The position numbers and the translations under genes were made by a program. Below are positions 35,200 to 41,340 of a DNA stretch of 56,640 nt, piece after piece. The stretch is from a bacterium. Lineage in GTDB: Bacteria > Patescibacteriota > Patescibacteriia > UBA1558 > UBA10009. How positions within the stretch are numbered: the stretch's first letter is position 1; the number at the start of each line of letters is the position of its first letter. The stretch is taken from contig JABHGM010000001.1 in assembly GCA_018672055.1 (NCBI GenBank), positions 890,093 through 946,732 on the forward strand. The letters are read 5' to 3'. The notes under the pieces were generated by a model. The model saw only the letters and a program-made list of their open reading frames with translations, did no database searches and was not told where the DNA came from.

Positions 35200-38100
35200 A
35201 TGTTAAAGTTACATAGAGCCATATTAATTACAATATTAGTGGCTTTTTTTACTTTCAGTACCAATTTATTACAAGTTTTAGCCTATTCTCAGAGTGAAGT
35301 AAATACTTCATCAAAAACAGTTACTAAGGTTAGTAAAGAAGTTAAAACTGTTGATATAGATCAACAAGCTGAAAAAACAGTAACTGAAGTGCAAACTCTA
35401 GAACCTGTTTCAAATGATGATAATGAATTAAGTAGAGAAAATAGAACTAATTCAGATTTTAATAGCTTACAATCTAAAGTTAATGATTTATCAAATATAA
35501 GTGGTTTAAAAGGTAATTTTAATGTAGATAAATTCTCAGGTGCTAGTACTTATTCATATGATATTGGCTTACCTTCATCTAGAACCCTTACTCCAGCTCT
35601 TAGTCTAAGTTATAATAGTTTAAATAGTAATCATAGTTTTCTAGGTCAATCTTGGAACTTATCTATGAGCTATATAGGACTTAGAAAAGAAAAAGGAGTT
35701 GATACTATATATAATGATAATAAATTTGAAATTAGTTTTCTAGGTAGTAATGAAAAATTATTTAATACAGAAAATAATATATATCTATTAGAAAAAGAAA
35801 GTAGTTTTCTAAAAATAGAAAAATTAAATAATCATTGGTTAGTAACTGATAAGCAAGGAACTAAATATTATTTTGGTAATACAAATAACTCAAGACAAAT
35901 AAATAATAATTTAAATGAAACTTACAGATGGTATTTAAGTTATGTTTTGGATACAAATAATAATTTTGTGAATTATAATTATATACAAGACAATAATACA
36001 ATCTATCCTAAGAATATAAGATATACTGGTAATGAAAATATTGAATCAGATAAAGAAGTTAGATTTCAACCATACTATAATAATGATTTAACTAGTCAAG
36101 AAAAAAACATTGTTAAATATACTGGAGGTTTTAAAGAAGAAATAGATTATAATTTAGAAAGTATTGAGATATTAATTAATAGTGCTAGTAATAACCCTGT
36201 TGCTTATTACAATTTTGAATATGATGAAACAACTAATCAGCTAGTATCTATCTTAAAAACAGCTATTGATGAAAATGGTGAAGCTATGAGTTACCCAGCT
36301 ACTACTTTCGAATACTATGATGAAGAAAGAAGCTATGTAGAAGAAAATATTTCACCTCTACCAAATGATATTAACTTGTCATATGTAACTAATAATGAAA
36401 CATATGAAAATAATGAAATGCGCTGGTTTGATATTAATGGTGATGGCACTGAAGATATAGTAAAAAGTATTGAATTAAATAATAATATAATAAATGAAGT
36501 ATATCTAAATCATTTAGGCACTTTTGTAGCCAGTGATCTTACTTTACCAGTTGCTTTTGTTAAATATGGCTCATCAAATAATTATCCATTTGGTAATATT
36601 AACAATGCTTTAGAAATATTTGATATTAATGGTGATAATAAATTAGATTTAATTGAATCATATTCTATAAACGATGAGATATTTTCTAATATTTATTTAA
36701 ATAACTCAGGTTCCTTTATAGAAGCTGATTACCCTGCCCTACCAATAAGCTTTGCTAAAAATATAGATGGACAATTTATTAAAAATAATGATTATAAAAT
36801 ATTTGATATTAATGGTGATAGTTTAAGTGATTTAATTAGATCATACGAATACAATGGTAACTTATATACTTCTACATATATTAACTTTGGTAATGGTCAA
36901 TTTGAAGAAAATTCTAACTTTAATATACCAATGGCTTTTTCCGTTAATACAGCTAATGCTAATTTACCGCTAACTAGTGTTAAAGTCTTAGATATAAATA
37001 ATGATAGCTTAATTGATATTGTACGCAGTATAAAAGTAAATGGTGATATTATAAGCCAAGTCTATTTAAATAAAGGTAATGGTAATTTTAATCTTGATTC
37101 TGATATTAATATACCTATTGAATTTGCTGAACTTATTAATACTGTTGAAGTAGCAAATAATAAGTTAAAACTAATTGATATAAACGCTGATAATCTACCA
37201 GATTTTGTTTCTAGTTATAAAGTAAATGGACAAAATTATCAAGATACATATTTAAATCAAGGTAATAGTAAATTTTTAAGTAATAATGATTTTAATATTA
37301 ACCTACCTTTTGCTCAATTTGATGGCACTAGCTTTAAGCGTATAGCTAATACATTTGCTTTAGATATTAATCATGATGGTAATATTGATTTTATTAAAAA
37401 CTATAGTACTGATAGTGGTGAAAACTATTTTATTCAAAAAAAATCTAATTACTTAACCTCTAAACGCTTAAAGAAAATTATAAATCCTCTAGGCTCTGAA
37501 ATAATTATTAAATATCAATCATCAAGCTATTATTTAGATGAAAACGATAATAACAGTAATAGTGAATTACCTTTTATCTATGATACAGTTTCAGAAATTG
37601 AAATAACAAATAATGGTGAAAGCTTAATTGAAACATATAATTACGCTCAAGGAAAATATATTTATCATGATTTATATGATAAAGAGTTCGTTGGTTTTGG
37701 TATTGTAACTAGCTATGATAACGAAGGAGATAAATACGTTGAAGAATACTATCATCAAGGTGGTGGTTTTAATGGCACAGAGCTTGGTGAATACGAAGAT
37801 AACAAATGGAAAAAAGGTAAATTATATAAAGCGGTTACCTATGCTCAATTATTTAATGATGATTTCTTTAAAATCAGCGAAGTAAGGAATAAATGGGAAT
37901 CAACTCCTTTAAACGAGAATGTCTCATTTGTTTACATAGATACAACCTTAAGCCAAATTAATGAGTCAGATGGCTCTTTAATGAAGGCTATTCAATATGT
38001 ATATGATGATTACGGAAACTTAATTCAATCAACTGATTATGCACAAGTAGAAAATAATTTTGATGATTATGTAATCAATGATTTAAATGATGGTAGATAT

Positions 38101-41100: not shown

Positions 41101-41340
41101 GGCTTACAAGCTAAAAAATGGAATATGCTAGGTAGAAACCCTTTTAAATTTGAAATTTCTTTAGGCGAATTTAAAGCATATGGAATTGAAAAAAAACTAT
41201 ATAAATATAATTCTCAAAGTTATAGAAAAGCATTAATGCTTGAAACTAAATTCCAAATTGAAGTTATGGATCAATTAGCAAAAAATAGTAAAAATCTATT
41301 TAAAAAATATGGCTCTGATTTAAAAAATATTTGGCATTAA
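35200..41340 (+). CDS. TcB/TcC-like fused polymorphic toxin: signal/anchor, SpvB-type domain, FG-GAP/VCBS repeats, RHS/YD-repeat shell, Rhs core, variable C-terminal cargo
   Basis: 2,046 aa. SpvB-type FNVDKFSGASTYSYDIGLPSSRTLTPALSLSYNS. Six DINGD-type repeats. More than 15 YD repeats (YVYDDYGNL, YDPLGRL, YEYDALDRV, YTYDILGRK, YSYDDFNRL, YGYDDLNRL, YQYDDSGNI and others). Rhs core YYYVWDHLNSTSAVTD..YGNRFYNPNTGRFISIDP, and PVKYIDPDGQL. Confidence 0.9.
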   Translation: MLKLHRAILITILVAFFTFSTNLLQVLAYSQSEVNTSSKTVTKVSKEVKTVDIDQQAEKTVTEVQTLEPVSNDDNELSRENRTNSDFNSLQSKVNDLSNISGLKGNFNVDKFSGASTYSYDIGLPSSRTLTPALSLSYNSLNSNHSFLGQSWNLSMSYIGLRKEKGVDTIYNDNKFEISFLGSNEKLFNTENNIYLLEKESSFLKIEKLNNHWLVTDKQGTKYYFGNTNNSRQINNNLNETYRWYLSYVLDTNNNFVNYNYIQDNNTIYPKNIRYTGNENIESDKEVRFQPYYNNDLTSQEKNIVKYTGGFKEEIDYNLESIEILINSASNNPVAYYNFEYDETTNQLVSILKTAIDENGEAMSYPATTFEYYDEERSYVEENISPLPNDINLSYVTNNETYENNEMRWFDINGDGTEDIVKSIELNNNIINEVYLNHLGTFVASDLTLPVAFVKYGSSNNYPFGNINNALEIFDINGDNKLDLIESYSINDEIFSNIYLNNSGSFIEADYPALPISFAKNIDGQFIKNNDYKIFDINGDSLSDLIRSYEYNGNLYTSTYINFGNGQFEENSNFNIPMAFSVNTANANLPLTSVKVLDINNDSLIDIVRSIKVNGDIISQVYLNKGNGNFNLDSDINIPIEFAELINTVEVANNKLKLIDINADNLPDFVSSYKVNGQNYQDTYLNQGNSKFLSNNDFNINLPFAQFDGTSFKRIANTFALDINHDGNIDFIKNYSTDSGENYFIQKKSNYLTSKRLKKIINPLGSEIIIKYQSSSYYLDENDNNSNSELPFIYDTVSEIEITNNGESLIETYNYAQGKYIYHDLYDKEFVGFGIVTSYDNEGDKYVEEYYHQGGGFNGTELGEYEDNKWKKGKLYKAVTYAQLFNDDFFKISEVRNKWESTPLNENVSFVYIDTTLSQINESDGSLMKAIQYVYDDYGNLIQSTDYAQVENNFDDYVINDLNDGRYITTTSYTTGEIQNETETQTFDINNNVLNHSRNYYDNLELNQIDIGNLTSSEIWNDDVNEWQTTYLEYNEVGNIVNTTNALNSTESFNYDDTYDYKTETTNALNQTYIVTYNKASGQIKETIDPNNYITESIYDPLGRLLETKQSKLNSEGLITIAKQEYSFTDHGYEITLLENNSLTDFEPLISKYYYNQLNQLIQIKREVQNGYLTYLIKYLPSGQIQEKTIPFLSNNLGLEEWPDNQNLTVSYEYDALDRVIQETNALGTVNYNYYLMSDEKEDIEGKVTRLTKDVRGNTISLTEYLNDEPLISYFEYNSSNQLISLTDVSGNVRNFDVNNTGNYTSIEDLHRNDETNFNYHEYTYDILGRKTSSIEPLANYQINYEYDELNRLINKNETLLNNNYTLTYDTGLNGIGRLNIIEGPNYLKEMSYDIAGNLLIETETINDKSFTTSYSYDDFNRLISTTYPNNEVINYLYDDYGNISKVTKNNNQEVTSNIVYDFLGQILLLEYANGVIQDFIYDPNQLYRLTNKIAYSNNNLIQGLEYEYSANGNLLNISNLVENQLAGTWQYGYDDLNRLLSVTKENGNLNYNINYQYDDSGNILFNSRVGNYEYDAIHPQAVTTAGQQQFSYDIRGNQTNQNNFNLSYDSENRLSEAISNNQQINWSYNLEGNLIHKQINEDNSVFNEYHINNTYQEDNNYKVNYIYLADQRIAKLVRVKPIVNNNLSNRQLPQIKPATTYYYVWDHLNSTSAVTDNNGNLTELIEYYPFGLSATDTNSDMTDYKYNDKLFDNDLELYFYGNRFYNPNTGRFISIDPLQNNLGSFIPAAMTSSQYQNAYSYANNNPVKYIDPDGQLVFLAALAVSALVGAAIDVAIEVGIQMYENKSMDLTKIDYKKVGKAAITGAIIGAAGFGVGTAISKAFKGAKAMSRIAKVSNDLKPGIKLTKAENAWYKGLRAKGKVVPKDFKNPNELGSFCPKTGCLELSKKLFKNPGEKIATIKHEFQHGLQAKKWNMLGRNPFKFEISLGEFKAYGIEKKLYKYNSQSYRKALMLETKFQIEVMDQLAKNSKNLFKKYGSDLKNIWH
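35515..36350 (+). other. SpvB/TcB-type N-terminal domain of the RHS protein (approximate borders)
   Basis: The motif tG.asysy.i.lP..r...P.LsLsYnS..s..flGqsWnLs is present (FSGASTYSYDIGLPSSRTLTPALSLSYNSLNSNHSFLGQSWNLS), followed by IYPKNIRYTGN. Confidence 0.6.
36421..37410 (+). repeat. Six tandem ~58-aa FG-GAP/VCBS-like repeats (predicted beta-propeller blades)
   Basis: Repeat cores: WFDINGDGTEDIV, IFDINGDNKLDLI, IFDINGDSLSDLI, VLDINNDSLIDIV, LIDINADNLPDFV and ALDINHDGNIDFI. Each is followed by ..(V/I)YLN.(G)(N/S)(G/S)(N/S)F. Confidence 0.7.
40303..40650 (+). other. Rhs repeat-associated core domain ending in the DPxG-type autoproteolysis motif
   Basis: YYYVWDHLNSTSAVTDNNGNLTELIEYYPFGL..YKYNDKLFDNDLELYFYGNRFYNPNTGRFISIDPL..NNNPVKYIDPDGQL. 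DPDGQL spans 40633-40650 and is in frame. Confidence 0.8.
40651..41340 (+). other. Variable C-terminal cargo (229 aa): glycine-zipper hydrophobic hairpin followed by a domain with an HExxH motif
   Basis: LVFLAALAVSALVGAAIDVAIEVGIQ and AAITGAIIGAAGFGVGTAISKAF are two hydrophobic Gly/Ala-rich helices. They are followed by ..ATIKHEFQHGLQ (HEFQH = 41086-41100) and a downstream GEFKAYGIE. Confidence 0.5.

Follow-up and report, generated by a model that had tools for sequence, protein, structure and literature searches.

The 56,640-nt stretch of Patescibacterial DNA analysed here (the window) carries a large open reading frame (ORF) for a putative exported toxin, in which a fused TcB-TcC-like Rhs cocoon is combined with a cargo at the C-terminus, and followed on the same strand by the gene of a large surface protein, called its partner below (Table 1). 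Genes upstream of the toxin encode housekeeping proteins (PheRS, the F-type ATPase operon, RmuC, TatD, MetRS, M16 peptidases, ProRS, GpsA, ClpB/C, TGT, RecO and IleRS), and large secreted proteins lie downstream of it.

Table 1. Features of the toxin locus and its neighbourhood (nucleotide positions in the window; aa, residues of the toxin unless a protein length is given).
Feature	Position	Strand	Evidence and remarks
ClpB/C-type chaperone	25582..28194	-	
Promoter-like site, best upstream of toxin gene	35099..35127	+	TTGACA-17-TAAACT; consensus match only
Toxin ORF, fused TcB-TcC-like Rhs cocoon with C-terminal cargo	35200..41340	+	single ORF, 2,046 aa
Predicted Sec-type signal peptide, aa 1-28	35200..35283	+	predicted cleavage between VLA and YS; rule-based call
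SpvB/TcaC N-terminal region, first strands of shell, aa ~101-400	35500..36399	+	Pfam SpvB, YenB, 6p0x
Six-bladed FG-GAP (integrin-like) beta-propeller, aa ~401-760	36400..37479	+	motifs, Pfam, model, family profile
TcdB_toxin_midN (PF12256), aa 717-853	37348..37758	+	Pfam, E = 1.3e-16
RHS/YD-repeat shell, aa ~761-1727, ~20 YD repeats	37480..40380	+	RHS_repeat, TIGR01643, TEN_YD-shell PF25023 (precomputed)
Rhs-associated core, predicted aspartyl autoprotease plug, aa 1728-1817	40381..40650	+	TIGR03696; D1777, P1807, D1812, G1815
Cargo module 1, hydrophobic Gly/Ala-rich two-helix hairpin (predicted), aa 1818-1887	40651..40860	+	hydrophobicity, orthologue conservation, HMM
Cargo module 2, small HExxH domain, aa ~1946-2046	41035..41337	+	HEFQH at aa 1963-1967 (nt 41086-41100); E1990 putative third zinc ligand
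Partner, secreted multi-domain surface protein, 1,173 aa	41448..44969	+	likely start M26 at nt 41523; CARDB, Ig-like repeats, dockerin, T9SS-type C-terminal domain (Pfam, NCBIfam)
13-bp palindromic hairpin after partner gene	44985..45013	. (listed on minus strand)	possible end of two-gene unit; plus-strand terminator role inferred
Shortened tandem paralogue of partner, 672 aa	45133..47151	+	partner's N-terminal motifs DQQGWP and ENEGFW, dockerin tail
Secreted protein with LamG domains, 1,171 aa	48595..52110	-	
ORF of 1,452 aa, TTG start	52260..56618	-	

The toxin begins with a predicted signal peptide (MLKLHR-AILITILVAFFTF-STNLLQVLA, then YS) composed of a charged n-region and a hydrophobic stretch of about 20 aa (19-mer hydrophobicity, residues 1-28). 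Its h-region and an ALA cleavage site are kept in both orthologues (P0002 and P0003), and a low-complexity linker leads from it to about residue 100. The SpvB family (PF03534) is detected in a scan restricted to the N-terminal 396 aa (E = 7.3e-12, 45.5 bits for a cutoff of 22, best stretch 113-182) and was missed by the precomputed and whole-protein Pfam scans; YenB matches residues 113-176 (E = 1e-3). The motif DINxDxxxD then occurs six times with a spacing of about 62 aa (residues 411, 475, 536, 598, 660 and 722), in a propeller region that matches Pfam FG-GAP_3 (E = 6.6e-9) and, through the family profile described below, integrin alpha propellers. A loose pattern finds 23 YD repeats at residues 760-1730, a few of them probably spurious, hence an estimate of about 20; the same shell matches RHS_repeat (Pfam, E = 6.3e-22) and TIGR01643 (E = 4.9e-9). 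The Rhs-associated core, spanned by TIGR03696 over residues 1728-1816 (E = 7.2e-17), ends in NNNPVKYIDPDGQL, with the DPDGQL motif at residues 1812-1817. An earlier note on this DNA, made from its letters alone, had listed a signal-like N-terminus, an SpvB-type motif, six FG-GAP blades, more than 15 YD repeats, an Rhs core and DPDGQL in this one ORF; each is present where that note placed it, and the profiles that it proposed for checking (SpvB, with the N-terminus taken alone, FG-GAP, TcdB_toxin_midN, RHS_repeat, TIGR01643 and TIGR03696) all match.

The predicted aspartyl autoprotease has an intact signature. Residue D1777 is invariant and P1807, D1812 and G1815 are each conserved in at least 90% of 34 relatives, a pattern that fits the PxxxxDxxG motif of TcC, in which the Asp and the Gly are required for self-cleavage (PMC7861908).

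The profile built from these 34 relatives has as its best solved match an engineered TcdB2-TccC3 fusion (E = 1.7e-102). Its other matches include TcdB1 and YenB, in the propeller and midN regions, TccC2 and YenC2, in the C-terminal shell, and the SpvB structure 6p0x, at the N-terminus; lower scores were obtained for effectors of the Rhs type fired by type VI secretion systems (T6SS), bacterial teneurin-like proteins and teneurins. Over its first 1,817 residues, the toxin is homologous to TcB and to the shell part of TcC, and the proposal that B and C are here joined in a single polypeptide is upheld. An AlphaFold model of residues 95-1290, computed from an eight-sequence alignment (pLDDT 63.7, pTM 0.41), contains six repeated four-strand units (pLDDT about 75-85). 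All of its top 12 Foldseek matches are TcB or TcB-TcC chains (E = 1e-35 to 5e-29), and T6SS Rhs proteins form the next group at about 1e-19. Of the cocoon structure that the earlier note had predicted, the TcB-like fold is thus recovered by the model; the closure of the shell we infer from homology, because the TM-scores to TcB are only 0.35-0.37 and the model covers part of the shell.

Such homology would also be expected if the protein were the BC part of a canonical three-component toxin complex (Tc) with a TcA gene at some other genomic site. By solved structure and by profile alike, the toxin is closest to TcB and TcC, and Photorhabdus has orphan TcC genes far from TcA (PMC7861908). The genome measures about 1 Mb, of which our search covered 56.6 kb. 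Within the window, no TcA, VRP1, T6SS or type VII secretion system (T7SS) family is found by Pfam among the 36 ORFs of at least 100 aa, as the earlier note had expected for TcA, and the 10-kb flanks of nine related loci from different Patescibacteria contain no TcA-type, T6SS or T7SS gene (one of them, L012, judged from ORF sizes only). The toxin itself has no PAAR, prePAAR, VgrG-binding, WXG or LXG N-terminus in Pfam and NCBIfam scans. Its N-terminal Sec signal peptide is conserved in the orthologues, whereas to our knowledge classical TcB has no Sec signal peptide. Classical TcB assembles with TcA in the cytoplasm before a lysis-type release. A hydrophobic leader such as the one at the start of the cargo (see below) is, as far as we know, untypical of TcC hypervariable regions. 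With these points against it, we regard a canonical Tc toxin as highly improbable.

Behind the core lies a basic tail of 229 aa (pI 9.9), the predicted cargo. Kyte-Doolittle hydrophobicity peaks at residues 1814-1843 and 1862-1880, with a value of 2.39 for the predicted hairpin, whose Gly-containing stretch reads GAIIGAAGFGVG. Among the three orthologues, this hairpin is the best-conserved segment of the whole protein (65-74% identity, versus about 50% for the shell). When the 229-aa tail was compared exhaustively by phmmer with 1.84 billion representatives, it recovered only its own cluster and three weak matches (P0132-P0134), all lying on the first 110 residues or so. In two of the three, the same hairpin directly follows the end of the Rhs core and precedes an unrelated tail, which points to a portable module; the third is a non-Rhs protein. 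As a separate observation, a hidden Markov model (HMM) of three sequences places the module in mid-protein, at residues 348-400 of the 509-aa non-Rhs protein P0133 (E = 2e-15), and this suggests that it may be used outside cocoon toxins too.

An HMM of six hairpin sequences scores 28.1 bits against the first 84 residues of Tse5-CT (PDB 8CP6, chain C), while 2,000 composition-preserving shuffles gave a mean of 0.65 bits (standard deviation 1.9) and a maximum of 11; database-wide, the similarity is not significant (E = 0.22 in the profile search and 6.7 in the single-sequence search). The cargo hairpin is probably related to the start of Tse5-CT. The latter is a pore-forming, depolarising cargo that inserts spontaneously into bilayers (PMC9637101, PMC10684867), and the full-length Tse5 cocoon binds bilayers in vitro and delivers Tse5-CT without other machinery (PMC10684867, PMC9637101). 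A further precedent is the nuclease Tde1, which needs an N-terminal glycine zipper for membrane passage and entry into prey cells (PMC10240207).

Leaders of this kind are not confined to the window. We surveyed 91 relatives with a recognisable core end and a tail of 120-400 aa, scoring 19-mers within the first 90 cargo residues. A 19-mer above 1.6 on the Kyte-Doolittle scale is present in 38 of the 91 tails and one above 1.2 in 67, against 2 and 6, respectively, of 354 control windows from the shell. A hydrophobic cargo leader is therefore common among the TcA-less cocoons of this family, and most of these leaders have no demonstrable homology to the hairpin of the window toxin. We also considered the PT-TG family (PF14449) as an identity for the hairpin, prompted by a weak PT-TG match in P0034, and rejected it: it has no Pfam support and the tail of P0034 looks different.

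The same hydrophobic segment lends itself to another interpretation, in which the protein is a teneurin-like adhesion or recognition protein displayed at the surface, anchored by the hairpin in the membrane of the producer and serving host attachment together with its adhesin-like neighbours. At the Kyte-Doolittle value given above, the most conserved segment of the protein is hydrophobic enough for stop-transfer. The neighbours are adhesin-like surface proteins, no immunity gene is found at the locus (see below), and, as teneurins demonstrate, a shell of this type can be put to use in adhesion (PMC13018210). Against an anchor, the autoprotease residues are intact, so that cleavage would sever the shell from the supposed anchor; the Tse5 helix that aligns with the hairpin sits inside the Tse5 shell (PMC9637101, PMC10684867); the conserved HExxH and Glu residues of the second cargo module would imply a catalytic cargo under selection; and the recurrence of the hairpin before different tails in other Rhs ends is what a delivery module would show. 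We consider an adhesin improbable, though worth attention in view of the stop-transfer potential of the hairpin.

The tail ends in a divergent HExxH domain, best read as a putative zinc peptidase of the Tox-MPTase4 type. All three orthologues share H1963, E1964, H1967 and E1990. The copy of the domain in P0002 matches Pfam Tox-MPTase4 (PF15640; E = 4.6e-6, 27.0 bits for a cutoff of 25), that of P0003 has a weak match to DUF6782 only, and that of the window matches neither Pfam (E up to 10) nor PDB. The exhaustive phmmer search found no relative of the domain outside its own cluster. An AlphaFold model of the cargo from the three-sequence alignment has a pLDDT of 41 and is unusable; its order of elements (strands, HExxH helix, Glu helix) is only suggestive and was not taken into a fold search.

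Toxins of polymorphic families are usually encoded next to their immunity genes, and this position is empty at the window locus. All six reading frames of the 182 nt that precede the likely start of the partner are free of ORFs of 50 aa or more, and in the two orthologous loci, too, nothing of that size separates the toxin stop from the gene that follows. In 7 of 7 distant relatives, by comparison, a small ORF of 118-176 aa starts -4 to +72 nt from the toxin stop, the classical immunity position. The cargo of the window toxin has been inherited with its shell (23-74% identity per segment among orthologues) rather than swapped. The missing immunity gene and the unreplaced cargo together point to a non-self target, for instance the host cell of an epibiont, rather than sibling cells.

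Both features bear on the possibility that this is an ordinary toxin directed against competitors or kin, with its immunity gene located elsewhere, too small or divergent to be noticed, or unneeded since the producer lacks the substrate of the peptidase. The toxin-immunity arrangement of the distant family members and the general assignment of Rhs and teneurin-like cocoon toxins to bacterial competition (PMC13018210) speak for it. The empty immunity position, shared by all three loci, and a cargo that behaves unlike the arms-race tails of polymorphic toxins speak against it, and we judge it unlikely. A eukaryotic target (a protist grazer or a eukaryotic host), as for the metallopeptidase effectors that are delivered into eukaryotic cells, would also account for the lack of an immunity gene at the locus: Tox-MPTase toxin tails are listed without immunity proteins (PMC3482391), as HExxH peptidase toxin families commonly are, and relatives such as HopH1 and NleD act on eukaryotes. 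Cultured Patescibacteria are, however, epibionts of bacteria (PMC13622651), and Tse5-CT, the nearest characterised, if only probable, relative of the hairpin, acts on bacterial inner membranes, which makes a eukaryotic target very improbable in our view.

The partner gene lies directly 3' of the toxin gene in all three orthologous loci, where it encodes proteins of 1,150-1,270 aa with 43-47% identity over about 1,000 aa, and the outer flanks of the three loci differ; the dockerin was noted in the window copy. No terminator-like site was found between the toxin and partner genes. A profile search of genome contigs with the partner alignment gave two partial matches only, one in an unclassified metagenome-assembled genome (MAG) and one, from Bacteroidota, to the C-terminal tail of the partner, and a partner-like gene at L008 has no adjoining toxin. 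The weakest of our proposals is that this co-oriented, conserved surface protein probably tethers or targets the cocoon.

Taken together, the data lead us to read the window protein as a self-contained, Sec-exported and TcA-independent Rhs cocoon of the TcdB/TcaC class that delivers a membrane-inserting metallopeptidase, encoded by a Patescibacterium; we give this a probability of roughly 55%. The toxin would be exported by Sec, fold outside the cell and cut itself at or just after DPDGQL, and the tail would therefore remain enclosed in the shell, which would keep soluble a membrane-active cargo that could not stay soluble alone. On contact with a target membrane, the cargo would leave the shell, and its Gly/Ala-rich hairpin would partition into the bilayer, where it could form a leak, or anchor or carry across the HExxH zinc peptidase. 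The hairpin of the cargo would in this way do the job of the TcA pentamer in Tc toxins.

Several points weigh against this scheme. Export, cleavage, membrane insertion and proteolysis are all deduced from sequence. A hairpin this hydrophobic could halt translocation by Sec, in the manner of a stop-transfer signal, and stay in the membrane of the producer. Its likeness to Tse5-CT falls short of database-wide significance and comes from a shuffle test of a compositionally biased segment. The window copy of the HExxH domain lacks a Pfam or PDB match of its own, and the cargo model is of no use in this respect. The partial shell model has low TM-scores and a low pTM and spans residues 95-1290 rather than the whole shell. 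The search for TcA and other partners took in the window, a small part of the genome, and the link between toxin and partner rests on three loci.

A broader version of the same idea, which we put forward tentatively and hold to be possible rather than likely, is that the TcB-TcC cocoon works as a stand-alone delivery device in Patescibacteria and other TcA-less lineages, its translocator built into the cargo as a hydrophobic, glycine-zipper-like leader immediately behind the autocleavage site; here the hairpin would enter the membrane of the host of the epibiont and carry or anchor the peptidase, and the co-inherited partner would target the cocoon. If so, the leader as translocator would be a general rule for TcA-less cocoons (42-74% of the 91 family cargos carry a leader), and a concrete weapon of a candidate-phyla-radiation bacterium against its host would be named. 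The same logic might explain the hydrophobic leaders on many TcA-less cocoon cargos and could provide a minimal protein-delivery scaffold. If the hairpin is not a translocator, the locus merely adds another orphan to a toxin class that is already well known. For cargo delivery by cocoons that lack a syringe, and for the ways in which Patescibacteria may harm or exploit their hosts, the locus offers a compact, testable case: two separable cargo modules, no immunity gene to confound expression and a single conserved partner gene.

The toxin is a resident gene, as the earlier note had gathered from its AT-richness. Its GC content is 26.1%, versus 30.1% for the window, and the residence is indicated by a GC content at third codon positions (GC3) like that of housekeeping genes (0.127, versus 0.123-0.161 for ClpB/C and IleRS). 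The host is a reduced candidate-phyla-radiation bacterium, a Parcubacteria-like Patescibacterium, again in agreement with that note; this follows from the best named matches of ClpB/C (Patescibacteria, Parcubacteria and Komeilibacteria) and from the many contigs, up to 963 kb long, on which the toxin protein recurs with 100% identity. Pfam barely recognises the first AAA module of the ClpB/C-type chaperone (only weak AAA_16 and nSTAND3 matches, at residues 317-363), and no Clp_N domain was found, a pattern shared by its closest Patescibacteria relatives. No tRNA gene and no Rfam family at the gathering score occur in the whole window (1..56640), and promoter-like sites in its AT-rich DNA are not enriched over shuffles.

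The tail of the partner deserves a remark of its own. It is a type-A sorting domain of the type IX secretion system (T9SS; TIGR04183, 37 bits; Pfam Por_Secre_tail), a system of Bacteroidota and the wider Fibrobacterota-Chlorobiota-Bacteroidota (FCB) group, though the partner belongs to a Patescibacterium. The partner gene has a GC content of 0.36 and a GC3 of 0.24, versus 0.30 and 0.12-0.16 for the genome, and the best genome match to its tail, with 43% identity, comes from a Bacteroidota MAG (L009). It is possible that the tail was borrowed, or else that it is simply a generic Ig-like domain.

Large surface or secreted proteins seem to be clustered at 35-56 kb of the window. The shortened paralogue lacks the central repeats and the T9SS-type tail of the partner. 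The 1,171-aa protein contains three LamG (Laminin_G_3) domains and has a weak TafC-like match; LamG domains are also fused into many members of the SpvB-RHS family (e.g., P0009, P0011, P0014 and P0022). The 1,452-aa ORF has no sequence match in Pfam, NCBIfam or PDB; we considered it as a cryptic translocator and set it aside, as it has no domain or PDB support and lies on the opposite strand, 11 kb away.

The homology search identified 333 relatives of the toxin (E of at most 1e-10), most of them about 2,000-2,700 aa long with SpvB, FG-GAP and RHS regions, and most of the named ones from Patescibacteria; their cargo tails vary. The rarity implied by the earlier note is overstated. The architecture is already known and not unusual: it corresponds to the TcdB/TcaC polymorphic-toxin class described by Zhang, Aravind et al. 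in 2012 (signal peptide, SpvB, integrin-like propeller, RHS and a variable toxin; PMC3482391), and natural B-C fusions have been noted before, in Burkholderia pseudomallei ABA52082.1 (PMC7861908). The delivery route is an acknowledged open question for Sec-exported cocoon toxins in general (PMC13018210). The window toxin is a member of this class, which is common in Patescibacteria, and has the signal peptide (by a rule-based call), the SpvB region with integrin-like propeller, and the RHS shell with Rhs core and tail; the downstream cognate immunity gene, usual and not obligatory in the class, is the part missing at the window locus. We found no description of SpvB-RHS toxins of Patescibacteria in the literature searched. 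Patescibacteria are not in the taxon list of Zhang et al. (2012), where Tox-MPTase4 is not listed with this export type (PMC3482391). Specific to the locus are the hairpin at the start of the cargo, the divergent HExxH domain at its end, the lack of an immunity ORF and the conserved surface-protein neighbour.

Two distant relatives, in different Paceibacteria-like genomes (L007, 10001..16464; L015, 10001..16576), occupy the same place, directly after grpE-dnaK-dnaJ and downstream of the rpsM-rplQ ribosomal cluster, with a small immunity-like ORF behind each of them. This shared position indicates that such toxins are old residents of Patescibacterial genomes rather than recent imports. A profile search of genome contigs with the three-sequence toxin alignment gave no relative, and a scan of metagenomes with the toxin alignment added three distant loci and no more.

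Among known systems, Tox-MPTase4 (PF15640) resembles the end of the cargo as a small zincin-like HExxH domain at the C-terminus of RHS proteins. Its signature (F[DN], [RK], HExxH) is recognisable in the orthologue alignment, with FN in two of three sequences and with K1948, K1952 and HExxH all invariant; the window copy differs in scoring below threshold and in having FC in place of F[DN]. For the joining of B and C, the parallels are ABA52082.1 of Burkholderia pseudomallei and the mosquito protein SGS1 (PDB 8FJP), which likewise have TcB-like and TcC-like parts in one chain; they come from other lineages and contexts and are likened here by description rather than by direct comparison.

Tse5 of Pseudomonas aeruginosa (PA2684) shares with the window toxin an Rhs shell and the same autoprotease, and its first 70 cargo residues or so align with the hairpin (GAAxxxxIExGxQ, DLTxIxxK, then a Gly-rich helix). 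Unlike the window toxin, Tse5 begins with a PAAR-like region, depends on a T6SS for its firing and lacks SpvB and propeller. Its cargo acts on membranes only and contains no enzyme domain, whereas that of the window toxin has the HExxH domain. Tse5 also has an immunity protein with two transmembrane segments, Tsi5, of which no counterpart was seen at the window locus.

The BC subunits of Tc toxins (Photorhabdus TcdB2-TccC3, PDB 4O9X and 6H6E; Yersinia YenB-YenC2, 4IGL) are arranged like the window toxin, with SpvB, FG-GAP-like propeller, TcdB_toxin_midN, RHS shell, Rhs-core autoprotease and a C-terminal cargo, which in the window toxin is predicted to be enclosed as well. The window toxin differs in being one polypeptide instead of two, in its predicted Sec signal peptide, in a cargo that starts with hydrophobic helices and in having no TcA near it or its relatives (in the window and in the 10-kb flanks of the nine loci), and the structural alignment with TcB gives an identity of only 13-14%. 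Bacterial teneurin-like proteins (PDB 9IFO and 9PT5; PMC13018210) are, as we propose for the window toxin, Sec-exported YD-shell cocoons that enclose a variable toxin and have no obvious delivery machine. They carry an FN-plug and an NHL propeller, and usually immunity genes, where the window toxin has an SpvB region and an FG-GAP propeller, and its modelled fold matches TcB far better than these proteins (E = 1e-35 versus 2e-16).

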